From UHGV virus genome UHGV-0071260: a DNA stretch of 24,179 nucleotides; one strand, 5' to 3'. Made by a program: the position numbers and the translations under genes. The number at the start of each line of letters is the position of its first letter. Within the stretch, counting starts at the first letter, position 1. This DNA comes from a virus. A model generated the notes under the pieces. It did not search any database. It saw nothing but the letters and a program-made list of their open reading frames with translations, and had not been told where the DNA came from. Shown here one piece after another: positions 3,464 through 22,478 of the stretch.

Positions 3464-3947
3464 CAGGTTATTAGCCTGCGTTTATGTCGCCGTTTTCGTT
3501 ATCATCAATCTTATTGTTAACCACTGTGGCCCGTGGGTAATTCCGATCACCACGGTAGCCGCCGTGTGTGTCAATATGATGATTCGTGATTTTCTGTTAT
3601 ATGACGGCGGCCTTAAATGGTCGGCTACAACATGCGCCGCCGCTGGCGCAATCACGGTGCTGATAAATTACGACGCCGGAATGGTGGCGATCGCCTCATT
3701 CGTCGCGGTTGTTTCCGGTTCGCTTATTTCTGGCGGCGTTTACCGGGTTTTACCTGGTGATTTCGATTCGAAACGCTGGCCTGCAAATATAGCGTCAGCC
3801 ATAGGCGATGCGTTGATTTTCCCTACACTATCGTTTATGGCGTTTATGCCGGAAATATCAGCGATGCAATTCATCTCAAAAATGGCAGCGGTAACGGTGA
3901 TCACTATCATCATGCGCCGCTATTTCACGTTTGAGGGAAGAAAATGA
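3444..3947 (+). CDS. compact polytopic inner-membrane protein (about 5-6 TM helices)
   Basis: Six hydrophobic segments in 167 aa; GGGAGGAAG RBS; stop overlaps the downstream ATG (ATGA). Confidence 0.6.
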   Translation: MKMVAIDRLLACVYVAVFVIINLIVNHCGPWVIPITTVAAVCVNMMIRDFLLYDGGLKWSATTCAAAGAITVLINYDAGMVAIASFVAVVSGSLISGGVYRVLPGDFDSKRWPANIASAIGDALIFPTLSFMAFMPEISAMQFISKMAAVTVITIIMRRYFTFEGRK

Positions 3948-4769: not shown

Positions 4770-4891
4770 ATAATGGCGCTATTCACTTTGTTCTGGTGTA
4801 TCCATTTTGTATGCTTCAAGCAAACGAAATGCTCTTTAAAAATCCGGCAGCGCTGAAATGCGTAGAAATCACCTGAAAAGGAGAGAGCATT

Positions 4892-5068
4892 ATGTCTTTT
4901 GATGATTACCAATGGCATGACGACTATGAACGAGAGAGCGTCATGCGTGCAATGTGCAATGTATGCAGCACAAAGAAAGGAGGCTGTAACGAGTGCAACG
5001 AATGCCTAGATCATTGGCTAATGGCCGGACACGCCGAAAGGCTGAACGAAACAGAGAATCAAAAATAA
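4892..5068 (+). CDS. small Cys-rich putative zinc-ribbon protein (58 aa)
   Basis: Read from sequence: MSFDDYQWHDDYERESVMRAMCNVCSTKKGGCNECNECLDHWLMAGHAERLNETENQK; GGAGAG RBS; below the track cut-off. Confidence 0.4.
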   Translation: MSFDDYQWHDDYERESVMRAMCNVCSTKKGGCNECNECLDHWLMAGHAERLNETENQK

Positions 5069-5082
5069 TCGGGGTGGTTTTT

Positions 5083-5688
5083 ATGCAGAACCCTAAAAAA
5101 CCCATAAGACGCCGTTGCAAATGCTGCGGCGTTTTTTTTGAGCCTAAATATCACAATCAAACGTGGTGCAGCGATGAATGTCTGGAAGAACTGAAGTTTG
5201 ATCAGCTATGCCGCGATCGTGAAAAGGCTATGAAGGCTATGGAACGAAAGAAACACCGTGATAGCCAGCGGGAAGAACGCAACCGGAAGCGGAAGCAGTT
5301 AAATCCGCGCAGCTACTGGATTAAACAGGCGCAAAACGTTTTTAACGCTTATATACGCGAGCGTGACGCGCGATTGCCGTGCATATCATGCGGGACTTAC
5401 TACGGTGAGCAATGCGGGTGGGATGCAGGCCATTACAGGACGGTAGCAGCCGCCGGACACCTTCGCTTCAACGAGGATAATTGTCACAAGCAATGCAGGC
5501 ACTGCAACCAGACACTAGACGGCAACATCGGAGGGTATCGCCCGGCGCTGATTCGAAAAATTGGCCTCGCCAGGGTGGTAGCTCTGGAGAACAACAACGA
5601 AACTCACAAATGGACGATTGCAGAATGTAAGGAGCTAATAAACATCTATCAGGCGAAATTGGACGCCTTAAGGAGAAAGGCAGCATGA
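5083..5688 (+). CDS. ninG: NinG/Rap-family recombination protein
   Basis: Close match to lambda NinG signature (PRSYWIKQAQ, FIRERD, LPCISCGT, WDAGHYRT, LRFNE, HKQC, CNQ, WTIAECK); ATG at 5083 follows a GGGGTGG RBS. Confidence 0.85.
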   Translation: MQNPKKPIRRRCKCCGVFFEPKYHNQTWCSDECLEELKFDQLCRDREKAMKAMERKKHRDSQREERNRKRKQLNPRSYWIKQAQNVFNAYIRERDARLPCISCGTYYGEQCGWDAGHYRTVAAAGHLRFNEDNCHKQCRHCNQTLDGNIGGYRPALIRKIGLARVVALENNNETHKWTIAECKELINIYQAKLDALRRKAA

Positions 5689-6086
5689 ATGAATATTCTT
5701 TTACCCTGCCTTACCCGCCATCGAACAATCGCTATTACCGACATTCGCGCGGTTTTCACTATATAAGCAAAGTGGGGAAGGAATATCGGGAACAAGTAAG
5801 AGACATCATCGAGCTATTAAATTTAAACATTAACCTACCTTGCCGACTGGCAATCGCCATCTATGCCGCGCCGCCGGATAACCGGATCAGAGATCTGGAT
5901 AATATCCCTAAATGCCTTTTTGATAGCCTTACCTATGCCGGATTTTGGAAGGATGACGGGCAAATTGACTCAATAAAAATTGTCCGCTGTCGGAAGGTAA
6001 AAGGCGGACGCTTGTTTATTAAGATCCGCGAACGCGGCGACCTGCTACCCGATATTGACGAATACGCAACGAATATATGGGGGTGA
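5685..6086 (+). CDS. rusA: RusA-family Holliday junction resolvase
   Basis: N-terminal FTLPYPPSNNRYYRH and RDLDN, GFWKDD, KGGRL motifs as in E. coli RusA; ATGA overlap with ninG. Confidence 0.9.
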   Translation: MNEYSFTLPYPPSNNRYYRHSRGFHYISKVGKEYREQVRDIIELLNLNINLPCRLAIAIYAAPPDNRIRDLDNIPKCLFDSLTYAGFWKDDGQIDSIKIVRCRKVKGGRLFIKIRERGDLLPDIDEYATNIWG

Positions 6087-6325
6087 CAATGGAGCTAATA
6101 AACATTGTTGTTAAATGTACTCAATCAAGCGTCGATTTTTTCACTGAAGGTAAAAAATATTCAGGTTTTATAAAGCATGGGTGCTTTGCTTTCATTCTAC
6201 AAGACGATCTTGTATCGGATTTCGACGACGCCTACGCATGGCGATTAGTCCAGTATTTCCCGTCAAAAAATGAGTATTTTTTGCAGGGTCATTTTAAAAC
6301 TCGGTTTAAGGTGGTGGAGAAATGA
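6077..6325 (+). CDS. hypothetical small protein
   Basis: 82-aa ORF overlapping rusA stop. Confidence 0.45.
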   Translation: MGVTMELINIVVKCTQSSVDFFTEGKKYSGFIKHGCFAFILQDDLVSDFDDAYAWRLVQYFPSKNEYFLQGHFKTRFKVVEK

Positions 6326-6504
6326 AAAACGAAGTTAAAGATCTGCAAATAGATATTCAGCGCGATGAGCATGATTTAGCTACAGTCCGACAAATCCAGG
6401 CTTTTCATATGCGCGAATTGCTTGCATTGAAAGAGCTTGAGAGGAAGTTAGTCCAGTCTATTTCTGATCGTAAACGCCTTATTGCTCGTTACGGGGGCAA
6501 ATAA
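6322..6504 (+). CDS. hypothetical small protein
   Basis: 60-aa ORF, start overlaps upstream stop. Confidence 0.4.
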   Translation: MKNEVKDLQIDIQRDEHDLATVRQIQAFHMRELLALKELERKLVQSISDRKRLIARYGGK

Positions 6505-7226
6505 TGAATCTGGAATCAATTCTTAAATTCCACTTCCCAAAATCACCGCGTTTGTCAGATGAAAGCCGGGGCACGTCCCCGGATGCGCTTAATACTACGG
6601 ATGCGCTAACTGCCGCTGGTATGGCGCAATCGCGCGTAGAGCTTGGTTATAGCGCTTTTCTGGGAAAGATGGAACTATCACAAGCCGAAAAACATAAGGC
6701 TGTAGTTTTGCTTACAGAGCGTTTAAGAGCTATGGCAAAAGATTACGAATACGTCATGGAGCTGGACGAGGACAAACGCAATGATCTTATTATTCTTGTT
6801 GCCGTTTTCGCGTTTCGGGATTACTGCCAGAGTGCCGCGACAGAAAAAACTTGTATGGATTGCGGCGGATATAAATTTACGTTTGACGACTACGGAGAAA
6901 AACACCTTTGCAAAAAATGCAAGGGGCATGGAAAAGTTCGCAATCATTGTAAACGATGCAAAGGGCGCGGCGAGATACCGGATAAAGCAGCCAGTGAAGC
7001 AGCGGAAATGCCAGTGTTCAAAACGTGCCAGCATTGCGGCGGGCGCGGGTACTCGCGTTTCCCTGTAGATCTTGTCCGGCGTGCGGTTAATCAGCTTGTA
7101 TTTCCGGTAAGCCGAACAACGTGGTGGAAGAAATACCGTGCTTTCTATGAAGACGCCATTACTGAATTGTTCAAAGAAGAGGCGCGGGCTGATAACGAAA
7201 TTAAACGAGTGACACGGGGTGAATAA
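6504..7226 (+). CDS. Q: late-gene antitermination protein Q-like, with an expanded DnaJ-type zinc-finger region
   Basis: Lies directly after ninG-rusA as in lambdoid phages; N-terminus MNLESILKFHFPKSP recalls Q82-type antiterminators; four CxxCxGxG-like repeats. Confidence 0.6.
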   Translation: MNLESILKFHFPKSPRLSDESRGTSPDALNTTDALTAAGMAQSRVELGYSAFLGKMELSQAEKHKAVVLLTERLRAMAKDYEYVMELDEDKRNDLIILVAVFAFRDYCQSAATEKTCMDCGGYKFTFDDYGEKHLCKKCKGHGKVRNHCKRCKGRGEIPDKAASEAAEMPVFKTCQHCGGRGYSRFPVDLVRRAVNQLVFPVSRTTWWKKYRAFYEDAITELFKEEARADNEIKRVTRGE

Positions 7227-7426
7227 TGAAACAACAAGAGATAAACATGAAAAAAGTGATTATTCTTTTTGAAGATTATAACGGTGAGGCATGGTGCAAG
7301 TATTTAAGCGGTGTTGAAGCACGGTTGGCGCTAACGTTTATTGCCGCACTGGATGAAGGGGATTTTAACGCTATTCCGGTTAAGCCAGTAGAAATCTATC
7401 GTCGCGAGGTGAAGGATGAAGCCTAA
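7226..7426 (+). CDS. hypothetical small protein
   Basis: ATG overlaps Q stop (TAATG); GGGGTG RBS. Confidence 0.4.
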   Translation: MKQQEINMKKVIILFEDYNGEAWCKYLSGVEARLALTFIAALDEGDFNAIPVKPVEIYRREVKDEA

Positions 7427-7685
7427 ATTAAAAGAACATCTATTCGCAAAGCTGGTTAATAATCTGACATTAACGGCGCGTGTGTGCAGTGATACGCAAC
7501 AATTAAGGGCGTGGATAGTAAGGGATTTAAGAAAATACATCGAGCCAGGCGGGCCAGGTGACGAGATGACTATGGACAAGGCCATCAAGCGCCGTTCGGC
7601 TGATTGGTCAGTAAGTAACACAGGATTAACCGGATACATCGAAGGCTATAACGACTGTTTACAGGATCATAGCGATGGCAAATAA
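7416..7685 (+). CDS. hypothetical protein
   Basis: GAGGTGAAGG RBS; overlaps upstream stop. Confidence 0.45.
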   Translation: MKPKLKEHLFAKLVNNLTLTARVCSDTQQLRAWIVRDLRKYIEPGGPGDEMTMDKAIKRRSADWSVSNTGLTGYIEGYNDCLQDHSDGK

Positions 7686-7974
7686 ACACTTACATTTGAA
7701 TTTAAAAGGTGAATACTTCCACGCCATCCGGGCAGGAAAGAAGGTGGAAGAATACCGGCTTTACAATGAATACTGGCGTAAACGCCTGGAGGGGCGGGAG
7801 TACACAAGATTAATCATTAAATGGGGTTATCCATCGGATGATGAGAAAGACCGGATTATCGTATTGCCTTACATGGGGTACGAAATCAAGTTGATTCAAC
7901 ATCCACTATTCGGCCCTGATCCGGTGAAGGTATTCGCAATAAAGTGTGATATTTACTGGCAATACAGATTTTAA
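7675..7974 (+). CDS. ASCH-domain-like protein
   Basis: GxKxxExR signature (AGKKVEEYR) near the N-terminus, 99 aa. Confidence 0.5.
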   Translation: MANKHLHLNLKGEYFHAIRAGKKVEEYRLYNEYWRKRLEGREYTRLIIKWGYPSDDEKDRIIVLPYMGYEIKLIQHPLFGPDPVKVFAIKCDIYWQYRF

Positions 7975-7987
7975 GGTTTGTTGAGCA

Positions 7988-8197
7988 ATGAAAAAAGCTG
8001 GCCTGTCAATTAGCCGCGTATTGTGCGGTGATGAAAACGAGATCCGCATAGAAATTAAATTTAGCACTGGTAAAGAGATAATTCTTTACACGACACCTGA
8101 AAACCTGACGCTGGCGCTTACTGGTAAATCTGAAACGCCGTGCGACGTCCGGTTGCGCAATATTAAAATTAAGGAATTAAGGAAGGGTGAAAAATGA
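7988..8197 (+). CDS. hypothetical small protein
   Basis: 69-aa ORF. Confidence 0.4.
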   Translation: MKKAGLSISRVLCGDENEIRIEIKFSTGKEIILYTTPENLTLALTGKSETPCDVRLRNIKIKELRKGEK

Positions 8198-8394
8198 AAA
8201 GTAGAATGAAACGCCTGGTAAGAGCTTACGACAAGGCTTTAATGGTTTTTAGTGACCTGCGGCACAATAAACGTGAGCGTCGTAAATGGGCGCGTTTATT
8301 TGCTAAAGAATGGCACGAAGATGATGCGACAATCGACTGCCAAAGAGACGCAGACGAATTAGCAGATGATAACGTTTACTATATGATGTGGTGA
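8194..8394 (+). CDS. hypothetical basic small protein, paralog A of a tandem pair
   Basis: GGAAGGGTG RBS; clear similarity to the next gene (MKSxxKRxxRAYDKALxxFxxL...KRxRRxxARL...WH...DAD..A.DN.YY). Confidence 0.5.
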   Translation: MKSRMKRLVRAYDKALMVFSDLRHNKRERRKWARLFAKEWHEDDATIDCQRDADELADDNVYYMMW

Positions 8395-8398
8395 CAAT

Positions 8399-8635
8399 AT
8401 GAAAAGTAACCGTAAGCGCATGATAAGAGCATATGATAAAGCGTTAATAGAATTTAACGAACTATCACGCAGTAAGCGCCGCCGCAGACAATTCGCGCGA
8501 CTTCTTTTTCATGTATGGCACGACGCTGATTTCTTTTTTGATGCCAGACATATAACACAGGAAGATGCGGATAATATAGCTTACGATAACATTTACTACA
8601 TATTGAGAAGGTGGGAATATGCAAATAATCATTGA
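8399..8635 (+). CDS. hypothetical basic small protein, paralog B of a tandem pair
   Basis: Shares the N-terminal and central motif with 8194-8394. Confidence 0.5.
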   Translation: MKSNRKRMIRAYDKALIEFNELSRSKRRRRQFARLLFHVWHDADFFFDARHITQEDADNIAYDNIYYILRRWEYANNH

Positions 8636-8984
8636 TTACCTTTGCCACGCTGCAAATACGCTTTTCGGTTTTTATCAGCATCCATTCCTGAAAGAATGGG
8701 ACGAAATGCTTAATGACATCATTGATAAAGGGTTAATAGTTGAAGTGGACGAGCTAACGATAAAATTCAATTACGAAGGCAAAGAATATGAAATATGGGT
8801 AGGGAATAGATGGTATTCATACGGGCATATTTATTCAATTGGCGGCAAATACATTAAACGGAGCCAGGAGTTTAGACCGCGATTCCGAACAATGCGCCGT
8901 CTGCGTGACCTGCATATGAATATATTTGAAGATCAGAAAGCGTGTGAACTATTCAAGATCTACGGTGATAAATCATGGAACTAA
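8619..8984 (+). CDS. hypothetical protein
   Basis: 121-aa ORF with AAGGTGGG RBS. Confidence 0.5.
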   Translation: MQIIIDYLCHAANTLFGFYQHPFLKEWDEMLNDIIDKGLIVEVDELTIKFNYEGKEYEIWVGNRWYSYGHIYSIGGKYIKRSQEFRPRFRTMRRLRDLHMNIFEDQKACELFKIYGDKSWN

Positions 8985-9205
8985 AAATCTGGCAGGCTAT
9001 CGACGTTGTTGATAACGAATTAACCATGTTTGCCACTGATGGAAAGCGCGTGGTGATCGCTACATGGACGCGCAACCATGATGATATAGCTTTTCGTCGC
9101 AAGGCTGCGGAGTGGCTTTTCTCTGATGAAGGCTACACGATGAATATCTCCCAGCTTGCCAGAATGAAGGATGAAAAGCTGGTAGATAGTTACACGACTG
9201 CATAG
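8975..9205 (+). CDS. hypothetical small protein
   Basis: 76-aa ORF. Confidence 0.4.
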   Translation: MELKIWQAIDVVDNELTMFATDGKRVVIATWTRNHDDIAFRRKAAEWLFSDEGYTMNISQLARMKDEKLVDSYTTA

Positions 9206-9215
9206 TGGGGCAAAT

Positions 9216-9449
9216 ATGCGTATCTATGAACACAAGCGGGATAAAACCCGCTTTTTTGTTCGTGCTGGCGTGGCGTACCAGTATCACGAATGTGGATATA
9301 TTGAGGTGCTTGCTTACAACCTGGATTTCGAACAAGAAAAAGAATGGTTTGACTTTAAGATTTACCGTAAGCGCAAGCCAACGCGCGACGAACGACACGC
9401 TATCCGGGACTTTTTAATCAGCATAGACCACTGGGAGGCAGACGAATGA
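9216..9449 (+). CDS. hypothetical small protein
   Basis: GTGGGG RBS, 77 aa. Confidence 0.45.
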   Translation: MRIYEHKRDKTRFFVRAGVAYQYHECGYIEVLAYNLDFEQEKEWFDFKIYRKRKPTRDERHAIRDFLISIDHWEADE

Positions 9450-9673
9450 AAGTTAAATTCTTGCACGATCACGGATACCAGTCATTGAAACAGGTTGTTG
9501 GTAAGGTCGTTAATGTCGTTCATAGCGATGATATTACTTGCATGATTAATGGTGCTGATCTCATTGCCGCTGGTGCTGATGACCATTACATCAATCCGGC
9601 GTGGTCGTATACGTTCAGCTTGGGCGATTTCGTCGGGGACAAGGGGCGCGGGCTTGAGATTGTAGAGGATTAA
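9446..9673 (+). CDS. hypothetical small protein
   Basis: GGGAGG RBS; ATGA overlap. Confidence 0.45.
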   Translation: MKVKFLHDHGYQSLKQVVGKVVNVVHSDDITCMINGADLIAAGADDHYINPAWSYTFSLGDFVGDKGRGLEIVED

Positions 9674-9677
9674 CGGT

Positions 9678-9893
9678 ATGGACGTTTACGAAGATCTCTA
9701 CCTACAGACCAATAGCCGCACTTTTTATTTTCTGAAAAGCGGCGTCGTATATCGCAGCGACAACGGGGTGATAATGAAAGAGTGTTTATTTAAGCGTAAA
9801 GACCTACTCGAAGATCTGGTTTTTGCCGGGATATTTCGTAAACGTCCGGCTAACCTGGAAGAAGAAATGTTGATCGACGAGGTGTTAAAATGA
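9678..9893 (+). CDS. hypothetical small protein
   Basis: GAGGA RBS. Confidence 0.45.
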   Translation: MDVYEDLYLQTNSRTFYFLKSGVVYRSDNGVIMKECLFKRKDLLEDLVFAGIFRKRPANLEEEMLIDEVLK

Positions 9894-10135
9894 AAGTGAA
9901 TTATTTCAGGGCAAAAGACAAGGCAACAGGAAAGCGGGTGGCTATCCTGGTTAATGAAGCAAATTATATGTTTGTTCTCCAGCCGTGGTGCATAGCTGAC
10001 TATAACGATGATTATCGCCGTCACGCTGCGCGGCGGGCGGTCGGGATGAAAGGCTGGCAGCCTCGCGACATGCTTAATTACTGCGACTGGAATCTGATAG
10101 CAAAATACACGGTCGATTATAAAGGGGTTTTCTGA
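9890..10135 (+). CDS. hypothetical small protein
   Basis: GAGGTG RBS; ATGA overlap. Confidence 0.45.
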   Translation: MKVNYFRAKDKATGKRVAILVNEANYMFVLQPWCIADYNDDYRRHAARRAVGMKGWQPRDMLNYCDWNLIAKYTVDYKGVF

Positions 10136-10347
10136 TGCAAGTTAAATGCTCATACTCAAGCAATGACAGTGTTTTCACGATTGGGAGTATTTATGACGTT
10201 CACATCGTTTATGGCAATGAAGCACACACAATGAGTAATTGCCTTGCCTTGATTGATAATCATGACGAAATATGGGTATTCAGGCCGAGCTATGAAGGCG
10301 GTGAAATATCCGGTGTAGGTTTTGCTGCCAGCTTTGAACGTTATTAA
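10135..10347 (+). CDS. hypothetical small protein, tandem paralog family member 1 of 4
   Basis: AAGGGG RBS; motifs FTIGSIYDV and IDNHDEIWVF shared with the next three genes. Confidence 0.5.
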   Translation: MQVKCSYSSNDSVFTIGSIYDVHIVYGNEAHTMSNCLALIDNHDEIWVFRPSYEGGEISGVGFAASFERY

Positions 10348-10357
10348 AGGGGCAACA

Positions 10358-10615
10358 ATGAAACATTTATATTTTGAGGTATTGCAGACGCGCGACCGCA
10401 ATATTTTTGAAGAAGGGAAGATCTATTGCGGCGTTCAACTCCACGGCGCACCGGGCGGTGATGGTGCAATGGCGATAACTGGCGATGATGATAAAGTTTA
10501 TTTCGCTTATGTTAGCCATATCAATAACGCCGCTGGTTTGTATATTTATCGCATAGTGCATGATTTCCGTGAGATCGCGGAGTTTTGCGCCCGCGAAGGC
10601 AGTAAACCGGAATGA
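10358..10615 (+). CDS. hypothetical small protein, tandem paralog family member 2 of 4
   Basis: AAGGGG RBS before ATG 10358; motifs FEEGKIYCGV and AITGDDDKVYFAY. Confidence 0.5.
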   Translation: MKHLYFEVLQTRDRNIFEEGKIYCGVQLHGAPGGDGAMAITGDDDKVYFAYVSHINNAAGLYIYRIVHDFREIAEFCAREGSKPE

Positions 10616-10625
10616 GTGAGGTGCT

Positions 10626-10865
10626 ATGAATCGGAAACATAGATACCAGTGCACATACTCACGATGCAGCGCGTTTTTTAAGAATGGCAAGATCTACGAG
10701 GTTGACGCGGCATTGGTTGACGCAAAGGATCAGGAATATATTCATGCCATTACTGACGACCAGGGGCAGTTATGGCGATTTTATAAGATGGGTTGTGGCA
10801 CGGCGCTTGTTTATGCGCGTGCTGGTGGTGGTGCTTTTGCTGCGTTTTCGTATGTAGGGGTATGA
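10626..10865 (+). CDS. hypothetical small protein, tandem paralog family member 3 of 4
   Basis: GAGTGAGGTG RBS; motifs FKNGKIYEV, AITDDQGQLWRFY, GAFAAFSY. Confidence 0.5.
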   Translation: MNRKHRYQCTYSRCSAFFKNGKIYEVDAALVDAKDQEYIHAITDDQGQLWRFYKMGCGTALVYARAGGGAFAAFSYVGV

Positions 10866-10867
10866 AA

Positions 10868-11086
10868 ATGATTTTAACGTGTAACGAATCGAAATTGGGC
10901 TGCTTTGAGGAAGGCGTACAGTACACGGCTGAAAAACCGATGGGATTGTCTCCTAAATTTCCGTTTATCGTCGTGACTGACACTTACGGTCACTTATGGT
11001 ATGCAGGGCCGCTAGGCGGTATTGGTCGTTATGTTGTCCGTAGTTCGGATGGGGCGATGAAGGTTACTTTTACGGAAGAAACGTAA
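10868..11086 (+). CDS. hypothetical small protein, tandem paralog family member 4 of 4
   Basis: ATG 10868 (or 10862) after AGGGG; motifs FEEGVQYTA and VVTDTYGHLWYAG. Confidence 0.5.
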   Translation: MILTCNESKLGCFEEGVQYTAEKPMGLSPKFPFIVVTDTYGHLWYAGPLGGIGRYVVRSSDGAMKVTFTEET

Positions 11087-11087
11087 A

Positions 11088-11103
11088 TGTGATCTGTATC
11101 ACA
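11088..11103. promoter_or_regulatory. CRP-consensus-like palindrome TGTGAT-N4-ATCACA (copy 3 of the GTGAT-N4-ATCAC motif)
   Basis: aaaTGTGATctgtATCACAagg matches the CRP consensus core TGTGA-N6-TCACA; intergenic, directly after a stop codon. Confidence 0.35.
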
Positions 11104-11112
11104 AGGTTTACG

Positions 11113-11144
11113 AAATGGCATTGTTTCGGCAGTGCCATTTTGTT
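11113..11144 (+). terminator. putative intrinsic terminator or regulatory hairpin
   Basis: 11-bp stem with one mismatch (AAATGGCATTG / CAGTGCCATTT), 6-nt loop, followed by TGTT. Confidence 0.4.
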
Positions 11145-11184
11145 ATAAAGAAGCTGAAGAGAGAACGATGCGGAGGGTAGAAAA

Positions 11185-11463
11185 ATGAAACGCTGGATTA
11201 ACAAAGAAGTCGAATCTCGCTTAAACGCATTTTGGGAGATGGTGGAGAAAGAAGACCCAGCACACGCTGCAAGCCCTTACCTGAACAACATCGAATATCA
11301 CTACATTGCAGCAAACAACGCGGAGTTCGAAGAAGAAGGTGGAGCCGACAAGTTCGCACAAAGCAACGCATTCAACAACGCAAACGAAATGATGATGGCA
11401 GTCATCGAACAGGCAGAGGAAGACTACGAATGCAAATCACTTGAATTTGCACGCATGGCATAA
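11185..11463 (+). CDS. hypothetical acidic protein
   Basis: GGAGGG RBS; 92 aa. Confidence 0.5.
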   Translation: MKRWINKEVESRLNAFWEMVEKEDPAHAASPYLNNIEYHYIAANNAEFEEEGGADKFAQSNAFNNANEMMMAVIEQAEEDYECKSLEFARMA

Positions 11464-11472
11464 GGGGGAACC

Positions 11473-11613
11473 ATGAACGCTAACGCTAAATATCCGGCCT
11501 GGGTTTTCGAACTATACGCCCGCTACTTTGAAGTATTGGCACCAGGTGAAGAAGCATTAAGCATTGACGAATACGCGGAGTGCTTAGGATTTAGAGGAGA
11601 CGAAGAAGCATAA
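11473..11613 (+). CDS. hypothetical small protein (46 aa)
   Basis: Strong AAGGGGGA RBS 5 nt before ATG; read from sequence, below the track cut-off. Confidence 0.4.
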   Translation: MNANAKYPAWVFELYARYFEVLAPGEEALSIDEYAECLGFRGDEEA

Positions 11614-11618
11614 AACAC

Positions 11619-11634
11619 GGGGCCGGATGGCCCC
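11619..11634 (+). other. GC-rich stem-loop (GGGGCC-GGAT-GGCCCC) in a short intergenic spacer
   Basis: Perfect 6-bp GC stem with tetraloop; no U-tract after it. Confidence 0.3.
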
Positions 11635-11656
11635 ATCAAATCAGAAGGGTGTAATC

Positions 11657-11950
11657 ATGAAAAGCGCTAAATTTATTGCTTGCTGTTTTGTTGAAGTTCC
11701 CTATAACGATGCGTTCTATCACGCTACTTTTACCGATAAGAATGGGAATGATCACGTTATTGTCGGCAAGCGTGGTGACTGGCTTTATATAACTGATGAT
11801 GATTGCATTTTCACTAAAAATCAGTTGCAAAAACTGGTTATCGGTAAACAGGAACAGGAAGACTATCAAATCATCCCGGTGGAAAGACTGAAAAGGGAGC
11901 AGAGAATTAAACGCGCTCAAGAGGAATTAAATAACATAAAGGGTATGTGA
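11657..11950 (+). CDS. hypothetical protein
   Basis: ATG 11657 with GAAGGGTG RBS; the track start at 11627 lies inside the hairpin. Confidence 0.5.
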   Translation: MKSAKFIACCFVEVPYNDAFYHATFTDKNGNDHVIVGKRGDWLYITDDDCIFTKNQLQKLVIGKQEQEDYQIIPVERLKREQRIKRAQEELNNIKGM

Positions 11951-11951
11951 T

Positions 11952-12206
11952 ATGAAAACAATCAGACTATGGCGCGGCAATAGCCGACTTGATGGTGAGT
12001 ACATCCGCGTGATTGAAGATGTTAATCGTGGTCGGTTTTATGAATTGGCATACAGCGAAAAAAGGGAGAAAGAATATCTGAACGAATCGACCCCTATGTG
12101 GTGTAAAGTGGCTGGCCTTGCCTCAATTCTGCGCCACGGGTTTTATGCAGATCATAACACGCTAATTGATGCCGAACTGGTGACAACTCTTTACGAAGGA
12201 GAATAA
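11952..12206 (+). CDS. hypothetical small protein
   Basis: AAGGG RBS; 84 aa. Confidence 0.5.
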   Translation: MKTIRLWRGNSRLDGEYIRVIEDVNRGRFYELAYSEKREKEYLNESTPMWCKVAGLASILRHGFYADHNTLIDAELVTTLYEGE

Positions 12207-12209
12207 ACA

Positions 12210-12533
12210 ATGAGTAAATTTATCAGCGTTAAGGTTTTCCGTGGCAATTTTCCAGAAGATAAAGAAATTGGACAATTCGCAGGTGAACGTGGCGTATGTT
12301 TCCGTGTAGCTACTGAAGACGATGCGCACGTTAAATGCTTTCACGTATCTGAACCGCCTTTTAATGCAGACCATCTTGAAGACCTGAATAGAATTAAAAG
12401 CCTTATTTTTGCCTATCTGGCGTTCCATGGCATAGCTGATGCTGATGTTGAATTGGTTGGGGCCGAACTGGTGGCAGAATACAAAATGACTGAAGGCGAA
12501 AACGGAGGGGTGGAAATTGAGCGCATCAAATAA
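12210..12533 (+). CDS. hypothetical protein
   Basis: AAGGAG RBS; 107 aa. Confidence 0.5.
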   Translation: MSKFISVKVFRGNFPEDKEIGQFAGERGVCFRVATEDDAHVKCFHVSEPPFNADHLEDLNRIKSLIFAYLAFHGIADADVELVGAELVAEYKMTEGENGGVEIERIK

Positions 12534-12768
12534 GCTGTATAAAGTCAGGTGTAAAGGCGAATACCCTGGCTTTACGGTTGGTTGCGAATATCTGGGCCAC
12601 ATTGGGTACGGCCCTTTCGGTGAGTTGGGAATGAATACGATTGACGACGACGGCGACAGCAGGACGCTCGATCTTGATACGGATGACTTCGAATATATCC
12701 CTCCAGTTACTTACCGTGCCGTAGATGATTTCCTGGCTGAACAAGAAGATGATGAAGAGGATGATTAA
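12517..12768 (+). CDS. hypothetical protein with acidic C-terminus
   Basis: Putative TTG start at 12517 preceded by GGAGGGGTGG; start codon uncertain. Confidence 0.4.
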   Translation: MSASNKLYKVRCKGEYPGFTVGCEYLGHIGYGPFGELGMNTIDDDGDSRTLDLDTDDFEYIPPVTYRAVDDFLAEQEDDEEDD

Positions 12769-12770
12769 CT

Positions 12771-12911
12771 ATGGATGACGAATACGTTAACAATTTTATT
12801 GTTATGTTTCTTAGTGAAAATTGGCGCATGTTTGAACATTATTGTTTTGAGCGCGGGGAAAATGCTGAAGAAATATATCAATATTTAGGCGGGGAGAAAG
12901 AGGATGATTGA
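12771..12911 (+). CDS. hypothetical small protein (46 aa)
   Basis: ATG directly after upstream stop; read from sequence, below the track cut-off. Confidence 0.3.
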   Translation: MDDEYVNNFIVMFLSENWRMFEHYCFERGENAEEIYQYLGGEKEDD

Positions 12912-13098
12912 ATGTCTTATCATTGCTGTGTTTCTCCTTTATATTGCTGGCGCTATCCTGATGTCTTGTTTTATCAAATCTAATGATCTCGATCGTGGTG
13001 GTCTTGAGATTCCTTTCTGGCCTGTAGCGGTGTTTATTGCTCTCGTAGATGCCGCGCGCGCGCAGATCAAAAGGGTTATTAAGGAGCGCAAGAAATGA
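12904..13098 (+). CDS. small membrane protein
   Basis: GGGGAGAAAGAGG RBS; hydrophobic N-terminal helix IIAVFLLYIAGAILMSCFI. Confidence 0.45.
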   Translation: MIECLIIAVFLLYIAGAILMSCFIKSNDLDRGGLEIPFWPVAVFIALVDAARAQIKRVIKERKK

Positions 13099-13277
13099 TT
13101 GAAGATGGTATATACGCCGTAACACTAATCGACAAGATGTTTTATCGCGTAGAGGGTGGTGATATTCGCGTTTGCGTTAGCGATGGTGAGTGGGTAGCGC
13201 CAATCATCAAGACGACGCGAGAAACAATTAAGATCTGGCTTGATAATGGCGATTTGGTGAAAGTTAGTGATTTGTAG
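13095..13277 (+). CDS. hypothetical small protein
   Basis: AAGGAG RBS; 60 aa. Confidence 0.45.
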   Translation: MIEDGIYAVTLIDKMFYRVEGGDIRVCVSDGEWVAPIIKTTRETIKIWLDNGDLVKVSDL

Positions 13278-13339
13278 CCATAATCGCGCATAAAAAACAA
13301 ATAGATTAAAATATTTCCTAACAATGCGAAATTGTAATT

Positions 13340-13362
13340 GCCCGGCCCGCGCCGGGTTTTTG
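13340..13362 (+). terminator. intrinsic terminator upstream of the holin gene (candidate tR'-like element)
   Basis: Stem CCCGGC / GCCGGG with loop CCGC followed by TTTTT; in a 104-bp AT-rich intergenic region. Confidence 0.55.
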
Positions 13363-13381
13363 CTTTGTTGGAGGTAAATCT

Positions 13382-13582
13382 ATGTTCGACAAAATACGGG
13401 AGGCGTGCGCGTATGCAGTAGGGGCCGTAACGGCCTTTTTTGGTGCGATAACCATTAATGATGTTGCTGTCTTTGTGGGTATCTTATCAACCGTAGGCAC
13501 ATTTGCCGTTAACTATTACTTCAAATCACAGGAGAACAAGCGAGCGCAAGAGGAACACGACGCGCGAATGGGGAATAAGTAA
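13382..13582 (+). CDS. class II holin (pinholin-like)
   Basis: 66 aa with two hydrophobic helices and a charged C-terminus (YFKSQENKRAQEEHDAR); directly upstream of a SAR endolysin. Confidence 0.7.
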   Translation: MFDKIREACAYAVGAVTAFFGAITINDVAVFVGILSTVGTFAVNYYFKSQENKRAQEEHDARMGNK

Positions 13583-13583
13583 C

Positions 13584-14075
13584 ATGATTAACCAATCGCT
13601 GAAAAACCGATTAACTAAGGCGGCGGCTGGTGGAGTATTAGCCATTGCATCCGTTTTGCTTGTATGGGTTGAGGGTACGGCTTACGAGCCTTATTACGAT
13701 ACCGGAGGCGTGCTAACTGTATGCAATGGCATAACTGGACCTGATGTTGTCCCAGGTAAGAGATACACACCGGATGAATGCGAGAGACTTTTACAAAAAC
13801 ACTTAGCCGTTTATAAAAAGGCGGTAGATCGTTATGTAAAAGTTGACATGAATGACTACCAACGCGCCGCGCTAATTAGCTTTTCATACAATATCGGGGT
13901 TGACGCTTTCAAAAAATCAACCTTGTTAAAAAAAATAAACAAAGGCGACTTTAAAGGGGCGTGTAAGGAGTTAGATCGCTGGGTATATGATAACGGGCGA
14001 TACATACAGGGCTTAAAAAATCGTCGCGATATTGAGCGCACCGTTTGTGAGTGGGGCGTAAATGATGGAAAGTGA
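13584..14075 (+). CDS. SAR endolysin (phage lysozyme, T4-lysozyme fold)
   Basis: N-terminal signal-anchor-release helix AAAGGVLAIASVLLVWV; catalytic E-x8-D-x5-T spacing (EGTAYEPYYDTGGVLT); close resemblance to P21 R; track ORF 13503 starts upstream of the likely ATG. Confidence 0.9.
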   Translation: MINQSLKNRLTKAAAGGVLAIASVLLVWVEGTAYEPYYDTGGVLTVCNGITGPDVVPGKRYTPDECERLLQKHLAVYKKAVDRYVKVDMNDYQRAALISFSYNIGVDAFKKSTLLKKINKGDFKGACKELDRWVYDNGRYIQGLKNRRDIERTVCEWGVNDGK

Positions 14076-14586
14076 TAATGAACTAAAACGAAAACTACAC
14101 TACGACCCGGCAACAGGTATTTTTACCTATAAAGTTAGCCCACACGGGAGGATCAAGGCGGGTAGTGTAGCCGGGTATAAACATAAAAGCGGGTATATAT
14201 ACATAGGAAGATATAAAGCGCATCGCCTCGCGTGGTTTTTCCATTATGGGGTGTGGCCCGAAAAGGACATTGATCATATTAATGGGATAAAAACAGACAA
14301 CAGGATAGTAAACCTTAGAGAAACAGATGATGCGCATAATTGCAGAAACAAGAAACATATTACCACTCATACATTGTCTGCATTCAGGGGCGTTAGCTAC
14401 CACAAAACGGATCGTGGTAATCCTAAGTGGCGGGTAAGAATTACTGACAATAACGGTAAACGTATATCTATTGGTTTATTTGACTCACTAGACGAAGCAA
14501 TCGCCGCTCGCATTTTGGCAGAAAACTTTTTCTATGGTGAATATGCACCTTCGATGGGTTGCGAGGGGGAAACGTGGACAAGATAA
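14062..14586 (+). CDS. HNH homing endonuclease with AP2-type DNA-binding domain
   Basis: HNH motif DHINGIKTDNRIVNLRETDDAHN and AP2-like segment FRGVSYHK...WRVRI; overlaps endolysin 3' end and Rz 5' end. Confidence 0.85.
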   Translation: MMESDNELKRKLHYDPATGIFTYKVSPHGRIKAGSVAGYKHKSGYIYIGRYKAHRLAWFFHYGVWPEKDIDHINGIKTDNRIVNLRETDDAHNCRNKKHITTHTLSAFRGVSYHKTDRGNPKWRVRITDNNGKRISIGLFDSLDEAIAARILAENFFYGEYAPSMGCEGETWTR

Positions 14587-15044
14587 AGGCGTTAATCATC
14601 GCCGTTGTTGTTTGCATTATTGCCGGACTGACCGCCGTAACGTGTTATTACCAGAGTGAGGCGGCAAGGTTACAGGAAGAAGTCACGGTGACGAAAGGCG
14701 CACTGAAAACGGCAAGTAACACTATTCAGCAGATGAAGGAGCGAAACGCCGAACTGTCAAAACTTGATAAGAGGTATCACGATGAGATTAAAGCTATCAG
14801 ATCTGACATTGCCGATCTGCGCACTGGCATTGATAACGGTACTATCCGGTTGCGCGTCAACGCAACACCTGTGCGAGTGTCCGACCCCACCGGATCCGCC
14901 AGCGCCATTGATGGAGCCGCCTGTAGACTCACTCCCGACGCTGAATCGGCTTATCTATCCCTCAGAGAACAACTAAAAGAGAAAGATGCGAAGATAACCG
15001 CACTTCAGAGCTACATCAAAACGCAGTGCTTACGCAAAGAATAA
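14574..15044 (+). CDS. Rz: i-spanin Rz
   Basis: N-terminal TM helix then coiled-coil-like region; embedded +1-frame lipoprotein ORF; probable GTG start at 14574 after GAGGGGGA (the track lists TTG 14559). Confidence 0.75.
   Translation: MDKIKALIIAVVVCIIAGLTAVTCYYQSEAARLQEEVTVTKGALKTASNTIQQMKERNAELSKLDKRYHDEIKAIRSDIADLRTGIDNGTIRLRVNATPVRVSDPTGSASAIDGAACRLTPDAESAYLSLREQLKEKDAKITALQSYIKTQCLRKE
14782..14976 (+). CDS. Rz1: o-spanin Rz1 (lipoprotein embedded within Rz)
   Basis: Lipobox LSGC after signal peptide MRLKLSDLTLPICALALITV; proline-rich mature part; AGAGGT RBS before ATG 14782. Confidence 0.7.
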   Translation: MRLKLSDLTLPICALALITVLSGCASTQHLCECPTPPDPPAPLMEPPVDSLPTLNRLIYPSENN

Positions 15045-15323: not shown

Positions 15324-15851
15324 ATGGCTAAGGCTAAAGGCATTAAATTGCCTCAATTTAAGATCCCACTCTTTGAGCATACAACAGTTTTCTTTTGCCC
15401 GACCCGCGAGATGTTCTATGAATTTTGCGAAAAGGCAGGAATTCCGATTGAACCTGATTTCGAGTTGGCTGGAGGATTAACGCTTACTTGCACTGGCGAG
15501 AATGGTGGTAACTTCTACGTGATCGCAGTATTCAACAATGAGTTGGGAACGCTAACGCATGAAGTGGCACATGCCACATTTCATTGTTTAAGTGATGTTG
15601 GCGTAATGGCTACAACAGATCCAAGCCATCCGGCAAATGAAACTTACGCTTATATGATTGGACGTATGTTTGATGCTTTTTATCCTGTACTACTTGAAAG
15701 CATCGACGCACAAGCCGCAGCTATCAGGGCGCAACAAGCGCTAGAAGAAGCTGAAAGAAAAAAAGAAGCCAAAAGAAAAGCAAAAACAAAAGAGCCGCCG
15801 AAAGTGGGAAAATACATTATTGCGGGGCAAAGCCGTTATGCAATGGGATGA
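15324..15851 (+). CDS. hypothetical protein with HExxH motif (possible zinc-metallopeptidase-like)
   Basis: THEVAH motif; Lys/Glu-rich C-terminal tail; AGGAGA RBS. Confidence 0.45.
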   Translation: MAKAKGIKLPQFKIPLFEHTTVFFCPTREMFYEFCEKAGIPIEPDFELAGGLTLTCTGENGGNFYVIAVFNNELGTLTHEVAHATFHCLSDVGVMATTDPSHPANETYAYMIGRMFDAFYPVLLESIDAQAAAIRAQQALEEAERKKEAKRKAKTKEPPKVGKYIIAGQSRYAMG

Positions 15852-16323
15852 TTATTTCAGTTATAACCCAGAAACAGAGGATCTAATGTGGAAGGTATAC
15901 AGATCTCCCAACGCAAAACCAGGCGACATTATCAGGGGGACTAAATCTAGAAACAAGCACTTGAGAGTAAATTTAAACAGAAAATATTATCAAGTTCATT
16001 GCATTATATGGGAAATGCACAACGGCCCGATACCGGAAGGAATGGAGGTAGACCATATTGACCATGACAAATGGAATAATAGGTTGCCAAACTTAAGACT
16101 CGTTGACGATGAGGGTAATGCGCATAATATGAGCTTGTTTAAAACTAACACAAGCGGCGTTTCCGGTGTCGGATGGCATAGCCAGCGTAAAAAATGGCGA
16201 GCAACAATATGGCATAAATGCAAGCAAATATCTCTTGGGTTGTTTGATAATTTTGATGATGCTGTAATGGCGCGGCGTGAAGCTGAAATTAAATATGGCT
16301 ATCACCCAAATCATGGTCATTGA
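15838..16323 (+). CDS. HNH homing endonuclease with AP2-type domain (second copy)
   Basis: HNH motif DHIDHDKWNNRLPNLRLVDDEGNAHN and AP2-like segment SGVSGVGWH...WRATI; the track start at 15820 is TTG, ATG is at 15838. Confidence 0.85.
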   Translation: MQWDDYFSYNPETEDLMWKVYRSPNAKPGDIIRGTKSRNKHLRVNLNRKYYQVHCIIWEMHNGPIPEGMEVDHIDHDKWNNRLPNLRLVDDEGNAHNMSLFKTNTSGVSGVGWHSQRKKWRATIWHKCKQISLGLFDNFDDAVMARREAEIKYGYHPNHGH

Positions 16324-21209: not shown

Positions 21210-22478
21210 GTGAATAAAGAGCTGATTCAGGTTAATACCAAATTAACCGCTAATACCATCCGCCGGGAAACATATAACGGGCGTGAACACATTGTGGTCC
21301 CGTCATATACGTTGCCCTTCAATATCGTTATGAATCGGGAATATTACCCGGAAGCTGAAATCATTGCTAATTATCAATCTCTGGAAGGCACGCTCGCACC
21401 GCTGGGCCATCCTACGGTTGACGGTGAATTTGTTTCCGCATTTAGCCCGGAAGGTCTGAATATTGGCTTTTGTGGAGCGTGGAACAGAAATGTTGAATTA
21501 CGCGGCAATCGTGTTTATGTGGAAAAATGGGTGGATGTTGAAACCGCCAGCCATTCAGAACAAGGCCGCGAATTATTAAGCCGACTGGAAGCGCTGGAAA
21601 AAGGCGAAAGCAAAGATCCGATCTGGTCATCCGTAGCCGTATATCGTCAGCGTATGCCAGCCACCGAAGAAATGAAAGCCCAGGGTGCTGACAGCGTTGT
21701 CAAAATTATGTCGATTGACCATGACGCTATCTTATTGCACGAACCGCCTGCCGCATCGCCTGAACAGGGCGTTGGCCTGATGGTTAACACTGACCAGGCG
21801 AAGCCGTTAATGGCGGTGGCAATGAAAGAAAACAGCTATCGCACGCTTGAAAGACAACTTGAGGAAGCGGCGCGTAAACTGTTCCCCGATGCAGATTATG
21901 TCTATGTTGTGGACTTCACTGATAAAGAAGTGACTATTGCCACTAACGCTGAAAATGCTCAAGTTTGCACGTATGAAAAACAGGCTGATAAAATAATTCT
22001 CAATAATGGCGAGCTTGCAACCAATGAGGAAGGTAAATCCTGGTTCGCTCAGTTCGCTGAACACCTATCCAATCTTTTCTCACTGAATGAAAAAATTAAG
22101 GCCAATAAATCGGAGGACGATCCCATGCCTTTGACCAAAGAAGAACGCGCCGAACTGGTAAAAGAAATTAACGAAAGCATCACTGCAAATATGGCTAATG
22201 CAATCGCTGAAGCACTTAAACCAGTACAGGCAAGCGTTGAAGAATTACAGATCAACCAGAAAGCGATTAAAGAAGAGATCGCAGCAAACGCAAATAAAGA
22301 AGTAGCAGAAAAACGCGCCGCAGTAGCAAAAGTGCACGGCGAAATTGTTGCTAACGCATTAAATGGGGAAGCGTTAGAAGCAATGTTTAAATCCCTGGGC
22401 AACGCAACGCCGATGGCAACCAACGCAGCAAGCGAAGGTAAAAAAGGCGAAGTACCAGACTTTAACACTTATTTCTAA
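21210..22478 (+). CDS. putative scaffolding protein or prohead protease-scaffold fusion
   Basis: C-terminal third is Ala/Glu/Lys-rich and coiled-coil-like; position between morphogenesis protein and capsid gene; probable GTG start at 21210 after GGGAG. Confidence 0.45.
   Translation: MNKELIQVNTKLTANTIRRETYNGREHIVVPSYTLPFNIVMNREYYPEAEIIANYQSLEGTLAPLGHPTVDGEFVSAFSPEGLNIGFCGAWNRNVELRGNRVYVEKWVDVETASHSEQGRELLSRLEALEKGESKDPIWSSVAVYRQRMPATEEMKAQGADSVVKIMSIDHDAILLHEPPAASPEQGVGLMVNTDQAKPLMAVAMKENSYRTLERQLEEAARKLFPDADYVYVVDFTDKEVTIATNAENAQVCTYEKQADKIILNNGELATNEEGKSWFAQFAEHLSNLFSLNEKIKANKSEDDPMPLTKEERAELVKEINESITANMANAIAEALKPVQASVEELQINQKAIKEEIAANANKEVAEKRAAVAKVHGEIVANALNGEALEAMFKSLGNATPMATNAASEGKKGEVPDFNTYF

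Follow-up and report, generated by a model that had tools for sequence, protein, structure and literature searches.

A lambda-type late antiterminator Q with four cysteine knuckles in an mEp021-like coliphage, and its probable target before the holin gene

The window, a stretch of 24,179 nucleotides from UHGV virus genome UHGV-0071260, belongs to an mEp021-like (mEp-immI) temperate coliphage, the closest records being mEp013, mEp554, mEp044, mEp010, mEp021, mEp515 and MagusPhagus with 84-91% nucleotide identity. The gene in question is an open reading frame (ORF) on the plus strand that starts with ATG and encodes 240 amino acids with four cysteine-pair motifs, or knuckles; its counterpart in mEp021 is gp37, 'putative late gene regulator Q' (AXN54156.1). 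A first-pass annotation made from the letters alone had taken it for a Q82/QuuD-type antiterminator with DnaJ-type repeats. The four cysteine pairs are found on the translation exactly as read there, and the protein is a Q antiterminator, but one of another family: it is a regular Q-lambda family member in a common four-knuckle form. The gene is composed as follows.

6504-7226 (+), antiterminator ORF, 240 amino acids
6504-6635 (+), codons 1-44, equivalent of the lambda Q nozzle (torus) segment, 57% identity to lambda Q 1-44
6852-6947 (+), codons 117-148, inserted cassette with knuckles 1 and 2, absent from lambda Q
6852-6875 (+), knuckle 1, CMDCGGYK, C117/C120
6909-6932 (+), knuckle 2, CKKCKGHG, C136/C139
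6948-7052 (+), codons 149-183, lambda-equivalent zinc-ribbon arm with knuckles 3 and 4 and arm tip S164-E168
6948-6971 (+), knuckle 3, CKRCKGRG, C149/C152
7026-7049 (+), knuckle 4, CQHCGGRG, C175/C178
7053-7217 (+), codons 184-238, C-terminal half of the body with helix-turn-helix, aligning to lambda Q 153-207 with 35% identity

To which of the known Q families does this protein belong? PF03589 ('Antitermination protein Q') scores 104.6 bits, its cut-off being 26.7 (E=3.1e-30), phrog_127 ('anti-termination protein Q-like') is matched over the full length at 8e-79, and among PDB entries phmmer places lambda Q (7ubm_Q, E=9e-40) first. The alignment with lambda Q falls into two pieces, residues 1-122 pairing with lambda 1-123 and residues 148-238 with lambda 117-207, and the fold agrees with Q-lambda, a four-helix body with helix-turn-helix and a zinc-ribbon arm. 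PF03589, PF06530 and PF06323 stand for Q-lambda, Q21 and Q82, respectively, three families without sequence similarity to each other, and Q21 is also structurally dissimilar to Q-lambda (Yin et al., 2022, PMC9388147). Neither PF06323 nor PF06530 is matched at E<=0.01 in the Pfam scan of the protein, which reports PF03589 and PF00684 only, and the N-terminus that had seemed Q82-like, MNLESILKFHFPKSP..., corresponds to MRLESVAKFHSPKSP... of lambda Q. A Q82/QuuD-type protein with additional cysteine pairs, for which only the first-pass assignment and the position after ninG-rusA spoke, is ruled out by the Pfam result and by the agreement with lambda Q in fold and over the full length of the sequence. 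The same homology leaves an unrelated zinc-finger protein without support.

The position after ninG-rusA itself was read correctly, albeit two small ORFs separate RusA from the Q gene. The second of these ends with a stop codon that overlaps the Q start by one base, and a 61-residue ORF occupies the same place before Q in two diverged mEp-like loci, L052 (Q 49% identical) and L055; the ORF may be a conserved companion of this type of Q.

4993-5688, NinG, upstream of Q, PF05766 at 1.3e-66
5685-6086, RusA, upstream of Q, PF05866 at 3.5e-15
6322-6504 (+), companion ORF of 60 amino acids, phrog_18514 at 1.2e-26

Module by module, the protein follows the reference structures of lambda Q (PDB 4MO1 and 7UBJ-7UBN; Pfam PF03589). 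Residues 1-44 are the best conserved part, with 57% identity to lambda Q (V6->I among the changes) versus 32-36% elsewhere; in lambda Q this segment refolds together with NusA into a nozzle, or torus, at the RNA exit channel (PMC9388147). G39, which is invariant among the homologues, L58, S110-A112 and T206 (T237 in the present protein) of lambda Q are retained. C149, C152, C175 and C178 correspond to lambda C118, C121, C144 and C147, with an identical spacing of 26 residues, and E165 aligns to lambda E134. The lambda Q arm (residues 114-152) is a 'type I shuffled zinc ribbon' with a single zinc site formed by these four cysteines; residues near the zinc touch the Q-binding element at its positions 11-13, residues 133-137 at the arm tip, E134 among them, touch sigma region 4, and the arm base (110-112, 117 and 122-126) touches the beta-prime zinc-binding domain of RNA polymerase (PMC9388147). 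The AF2 model places helices at 188-198 and 204-237 in the C-terminal half and a strand-helix-strand unit (157-159, 161-167, 172-174) between knuckles 3 and 4, resembling lambda B1-H3-B2.

What sets the protein apart from lambda Q is the cassette of about 32 residues with knuckles 1 and 2, an insertion that separates the SAA motif from the first lambda-equivalent knuckle. This position is the arm base or hinge and not the tip, and, by analogy with lambda Q, the cassette adjoins residues that touch the beta-prime zinc-binding domain. An alignment of 33 homologues with identities down to 32% shows no change at any of the eight knuckle cysteines, indicating that the four knuckles are no chance pattern. 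The spacings between knuckles are 19, 13 and 26 residues in the window; family-wide the second spacing is fixed at 13 and the third at 25 or 26, while the first varies from 13 to 62, as would be expected if a variable loop capped the tip of a separate ribbon. Two short strands predicted by AF2 between knuckles 1 and 2 (125-127 and 133-135) fit a hairpin joining these knuckles. In addition, nature provides a deletion pair. P0053, with 200 residues and two knuckles, and P0044, with 269 residues and four knuckles, share 85% identity outside the arm; P0053 retains exactly the knuckle 3-4 unit of P0044 (CRCNGTGK...KTCxxCDGRGYA) and is devoid of the entire 67-residue knuckle 1-2 unit, suggesting that knuckles 3 and 4 constitute a self-sufficient ribbon of the lambda type and that knuckles 1 and 2 form another site. 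AF2 secondary structure, spacing and the P0044/P0053 pair together make it probable that two zinc ions are held by the eight cysteines in tandem ribbons, 1+2 and 3+4.

The resemblance to DnaJ, in turn, is confined to the motif level. Like the present protein, the DnaJ cysteine-rich (CR) domain has four motifs of the CxxCxGxG type with probably two zinc ions, and PF00684 is matched over residues 136-183 with E=1.1e-05, faint or weak precomputed matches to it occurring in many homologues; BFVD adds short similarities to phage 'CR-type' and anti-TRAP-like zinc proteins, with non-significant E-values. One could imagine the arm as a homologous or borrowed DnaJ-type domain in which knuckles 1+4 and 2+3 form interleaved zinc centres and which might have a chaperone-like or thiol-redox function. 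However, the PF00684 match scores 26.0 bits where the gathering score is 32.7, DnaJ NCBIfam models reach 9-23 bits against cut-offs of 338-619, the Pfam scan of the protein shows no J domain, and the structural comparison with the DnaJ two-zinc domain yields no DnaJ fold match; BFVD gives no strong full-length match but only non-significant matches of 33-42 residues to small zinc-knuckle proteins. The protein does not fall into the TIGR02642/PF27659 (CHP02642) family either: TIGR02642 matches only the C-terminal part with 32.4 bits against a cut-off of 101.4, and PF27659, which appears among the precomputed domains of homologues, is faint or weak wherever its strength is shown. The deletion pair also argues for tandem ribbons, and the spacings of 19/13/26 and missing J domain differ from DnaJ. 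Moreover, the two knuckles of lambda Q, CRDCHGTG and CGRCKGVG, are themselves of the CxxCxGxG kind, so the knuckle type is native to the Q-lambda family and only the number differs. The DnaJ-type repeats of the first-pass annotation therefore stand as a motif likeness and not as a DnaJ domain, an origin that we consider improbable.

Four knuckles are no peculiarity of this phage. A search of 1.84 billion cluster representatives returned 182 matches, among which proteins of at least 190 residues comprise 29 with four knuckles (plus three with an extra unrelated cysteine pair) versus 12 with two, and a wider set 43 versus 13; since the census was seeded with a four-knuckle query, these ratios are biased towards four-knuckle proteins. 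Despite this bias the four-knuckle form is clearly common in the family, and the expansion of the zinc module that had been suggested earlier is real as an extra knuckle pair relative to lambda Q but not unusual, four knuckles being the commoner state sampled. The two-knuckle proteins are scattered, the nearest four-knuckle relative being 54% identical in the body for lambda and 85% for P0053, which suggests that the cassette was lost or gained repeatedly. Homologues of 240-283 residues in E. coli, Citrobacter, Pantoea, Pectobacterium, Xenorhabdus and Serratia keep the eight cysteines, although knuckle 3 is often CxC and knuckle 1 sometimes CxxxxC, and are named 'antitermination protein (Q)' by their sources. 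The gene is present in 35 of 5,426 complete E. coli genomes, always on the chromosome and annotated by the same name, and a single cluster at 95% identity has 981 member sequences. A literature search, with subscription journals outside its scope, found no description of double-zinc Q proteins or of a second ribbon.

Where does this Q act? As the first-pass annotation had remarked, there is no intergenic space after the gene: the stop codon TAA (7224-7226) overlaps the ATG of the next ORF (7226-7228) by one base, leaving a zero gap and no directly adjoining promoter-terminator unit. About 6.1 kb 3' of Q, immediately before the holin gene, lies a compact block (13307-13365) that is probably its target, a candidate recognized by comparison with other phages. 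In it TAAAAT is followed after 7 nt by AACAAT and after a further 14 nt by a terminator.

13307-13325 (+), candidate -10 hexamer TAAAAT (13307-13312), spacer of 7 nt and pause-element-like AACAAT (13320-13325), from comparison
13340-13365 (+), strong intrinsic terminator, stem-loop 13340-13357 plus T-tract, from the terminator scan, counterpart of mEp021 TERM_5
13382-13582 (+), holin, the first late gene, PF16080 at 6.7e-16, ribosome-binding site GGAGG at 13370-13374

The corresponding mEp021 terminator, t5, is described as established by experiment (PMC11893012). The holin gene is followed by genes for endolysin (PF00959, 1.5e-41), Rz spanin (PF03245, 3e-25) and an Sf6-type small terminase (2.5e-37). 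About 45 nt 5' of the terminator are non-coding and almost invariant in seven phages, in which the TAAAAT/AACAAT element shows no variation, whereas the sequence farther upstream diverges; across 43 IMG/VR loci the block is at least 95% conserved, exceeding the adjoining holin coding sequence. Wherever a locus includes enough DNA, a Q of this type is found on the same strand 3.0-6.7 kb 5' of the block. The layout recurs in known and presumed Q cassettes, listed here as source, -10 hexamer, spacer and second hexamer.

Window 13307-13325: TAAAAT, ATTTCCT, AACAAT
Lambda pR': TAAATT, TGACTC, AACGAT
Serratia L059: TAATTT, CTTTCT, AACGAT
Citrobacter L061: TAATCT, GAAACC, AATGAT
Pantoea L057: CATTAT, CACGCC, AATGAT
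L055, diverged mEp-like: TAAAAT, ATCCTC, AACAAT
L052, diverged mEp-like: TATAAT, TCCCTC, AATAAT

In lambda the start of transcription coincides with the first base of AACGAT, the -10-like sigma-dependent pause element of the late promoter. The pattern would be expected by chance with a frequency of 0.004 in a given interval of 40 nt, and no further site of the type -10, 7 nt, AAYRAT exists between Q and holin. Q would accordingly load at the candidate promoter/pause block 13307-13325, just before terminator and holin, and the Q-modified polymerase would read through the terminator at 13340-13365 into the holin and subsequent late genes. In the Pantoea prophage L057 the promoter just 3' of the Q gene (3870-3915) has TGAATAAAAT between -35 and -10, as in the region of the lambda Q-binding element. 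Only the Pantoea protein P0014, with four knuckles, shares both the start of the lambda recognition helix (QPTWSR) and a lambda-like TGAATAAAAT promoter spacer, suggesting that the extra ribbon leaves the geometry between body, arm and DNA site unchanged.

Taken together we assign a probability of roughly 80% to the reading that the protein is the late antiterminator Q of an mEp021-like phage, a Q-lambda family member with two tandem zinc ribbons and a probable target at 13307-13365. Several points weigh against it. The zinc count and the pairing are inferred from secondary structure and sequence. The hexamer pattern is not rare genome-wide, with two matches on the plus strand of the window versus 2.6 expected, the -35 is poor (TCGCGC in the window and TTGTGG in mEp021-type variants), and a consensus promoter scan did not report the TAAAAT site. 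The recognition helix reads SRTTWWKK in place of TQPTWSRT in lambda Q, which implies a different Q-binding element, so that this element is not readable from the sequence of the candidate cassette or by analogy with lambda. For the conservation of AACAATGCGAAA, pairing with the U-tract of the terminator and with the ribosome-binding site of the holin gene offers another explanation. Finally, the literature searched shows no antitermination by this protein, which PMC11893012 only terms Q-lambda-like. As to other elements, the second plus-strand match (21989-22007, TAAAAT-AATTCTC-AATAAT) lies inside a structural gene and is probably due to chance. GTGAAA-16-CATAAT at 13257-13284, proposed by the consensus scan, was rejected as a conserved element as it is found only in the upstream-flank variant of the window and MagusPhagus.

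The block could instead be conserved for RNA structure, as an extended terminator and for translational masking of the holin, with Q loading elsewhere. RNA folding predicts a long-range helix at 13313-13375 (+) that encloses the terminator: AACAAUGCGAAA pairs with the terminator U-tract, and a pyrimidine stretch UUUCC just upstream pairs with the holin Shine-Dalgarno sequence GGAGG. Minimum-free-energy folding yields the helix for the window, for L055 and for the diverged L052, whose sequences differ (z = -3.8 to -5.4), RNAalifold keeps it in 13 of 13 distinct versions, and it would accord with the weak -35 of the candidate promoter; the predicted fold of a canonical Serratia cassette contains no such long-range helix. 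However, its pairs are nearly all invariant or changed on one side only, the covariation term of -0.66 kcal/mol being too sparse to decide in these 13 versions, and the commonest variant, ATTACCT, breaks one Shine-Dalgarno pair. The layout of -10, 6-7 nt and AAYRAT recurs moreover in the lambda, Serratia, Citrobacter and Pantoea cassettes, which are devoid of the helix, and an alternative such site is missing between Q and holin. We therefore regard conservation for RNA structure alone as unlikely, though the least unlikely of the rival explanations. The helix itself is compatible with the data, and helix and promoter are compatible with each other: the anti-Shine-Dalgarno stretch, being located upstream of the presumed start, would be present only in transcripts arriving from upstream. 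One may speculate that in early transcripts holin translation is masked by the helix, whereas Q-modified late transcripts would lack the anti-Shine-Dalgarno stretch.

A second challenge concerns the function of Q. mEp-immI phages possess an N-like (Gp17) antitermination system with three nut sites (PMC11893012), no promoter-terminator unit adjoins the Q gene, and the small ORFs behind it would be transcribed from upstream. Could the protein be a decayed or re-purposed homologue, for example a DNA-binding regulator, and the late genes be reached by N-like read-through? This seems very improbable, as conservation is highest in the nozzle-forming N-terminus, which lambda requires for antitermination only, none of the zinc ligands varies, Q and block co-occur at every locus with enough DNA, and an experimentally shown terminator directly precedes the late genes. 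A nut-like reading of the pre-holin block was rejected, the block having no boxA and only a weak AU hairpin. At about 4831-4870 (+), between a cytosine methyltransferase gene and ninF, by comparison, a boxA-like GCTCTTTAAAAA precedes a small hairpin whose loop is A-rich (AGCGCUGAAAUGCGU); this element is probably the counterpart of nutR2 of the mEp021 Gp17 system.

What might the second ribbon do? It may be a functional extra contact at the arm base, to the beta-prime zinc-binding domain or to promoter DNA, that alters Q loading, combined with loading at a minimal promoter and masking of the holin; we hold this combination to be rather doubtful. If it were true, Q would load at a minimal mEp-like promoter whose -35 is nearly missing, whose pause element lies at +1 and whose terminator follows after about 20 nt, the anti-Shine-Dalgarno stretch upstream of the start would keep the holin untranslated in early read-through transcripts, and the lambda structures would describe only a stripped-down version of the family mechanism.

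Between Q and the block lies an array of small ORFs.

7226-13277 (+), about 25 tightly packed co-directional ORFs over about 6.1 kb, most without known family

The related mEp phages likewise have such a run of small co-directional ORFs directly after Q, with no gap. IMG/VR relatives have spacers of 3.0-6.7 kb, compared with about 2 kb in mEp021, and owing to this variation the array behaves as a hypervariable region of accessory genes. It contains an adjacent pair of paralogues (8194-8394 and 8399-8635) and a terminator-like hairpin at 9234-9253 (+), with 7 bp, 5 of them GC, and a T-tract, within the start of the ORF 9216-9449. The pre-holin gap in mEp-like phages is 112 nt or shorter, whereas four-knuckle Qs of lambdoid prophages of Pantoea, Serratia and Citrobacter are directly followed by an ordinary gap of 130-530 bp, which indicates that the displaced layout belongs to the mEp-like group and not to the four-knuckle arm. 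Downstream, two genes of the homing-endonuclease type with HNH_3 and AP2 domains are found at 14062-14586 and 15820-16323 (+); the first is located between endolysin and Rz, where mEp021, mEp013 and MagusPhagus have nothing inserted. The Rz gene (14559-15044) contains in another frame an embedded ORF (14764-14976, +) with a lipoprotein-type signal (…LSGCAS…); embedded Rz/Rz1 genes are the usual spanin arrangement. The window contains no tRNAs and no known RNA family at gathering score, a weak rnk_pseudo match near the block reaching 18 bits versus 55.

These observations matter in several respects. The annotation lead is corrected to a lambda-type Q, neither Q82 nor DnaJ-like, with four cysteine pairs as the normal state of the family. 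Structural and mechanistic knowledge of the family comes entirely from the two-knuckle Q of lambda, whereas most sampled clusters carry the extra ribbon. Furthermore, mEp021-like coliphages are reported to be as common as lambdoid phages in human faeces, and they place 2-7 kb of variable accessory genes between Q and its presumed loading site. Promoter, pause element and terminator together take up about 60 bp before the holin, and the block would be a compact, presumably Q-dependent cassette.

How does the system compare with those already known? Q82 (PF06323) and Q21 (PF06530) fulfil the same regulatory role in the same genomic neighbourhood of lambdoid phages, but their sequences are unlike the present protein. 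Other mEp-immI phages have Q in the same place, as a four-knuckle protein of 240-242 residues, and share the pre-holin block and terminator t5 (PMC11893012); the distance from Q to the block is about 2 kb in mEp021 but 6.1 kb in the window and in MagusPhagus, and the zinc module, a qut site and the late promoter are not discussed in that description of these phages (PMC11893012). Canonical lambdoid-prophage Qs such as P0014 of Pantoea, P0030 of Serratia and P0013 of Citrobacter have the four invariant knuckles and the spacings of 13 and 25 or 26, as here, yet differ in a knuckle 1-2 loop of 35-59 residues compared to 19, in knuckle 3, often CxC, and in a promoter/pause/terminator cassette directly 3' of Q as in lambda. 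With lambda Q itself the protein shares the fold, the nozzle segment, the helix-turn-helix body, the four zinc ligands, the equivalent of tip residue E134 and the CxxCxGxG knuckle type, and its presumed target shares the layout of -10, 6-7 nt and AAYRAT pause element. Lambda Q is the short version with two knuckles, to which the protein described here adds the 32-residue cassette at the arm base. The targets differ in distance from Q (6.1 kb as opposed to 44 bp in lambda), in the start of the terminator relative to the presumed transcription start (about 20 nt as opposed to about 190 nt) and in the candidate late promoter, whose -35 is weak, unlike that of lambda.

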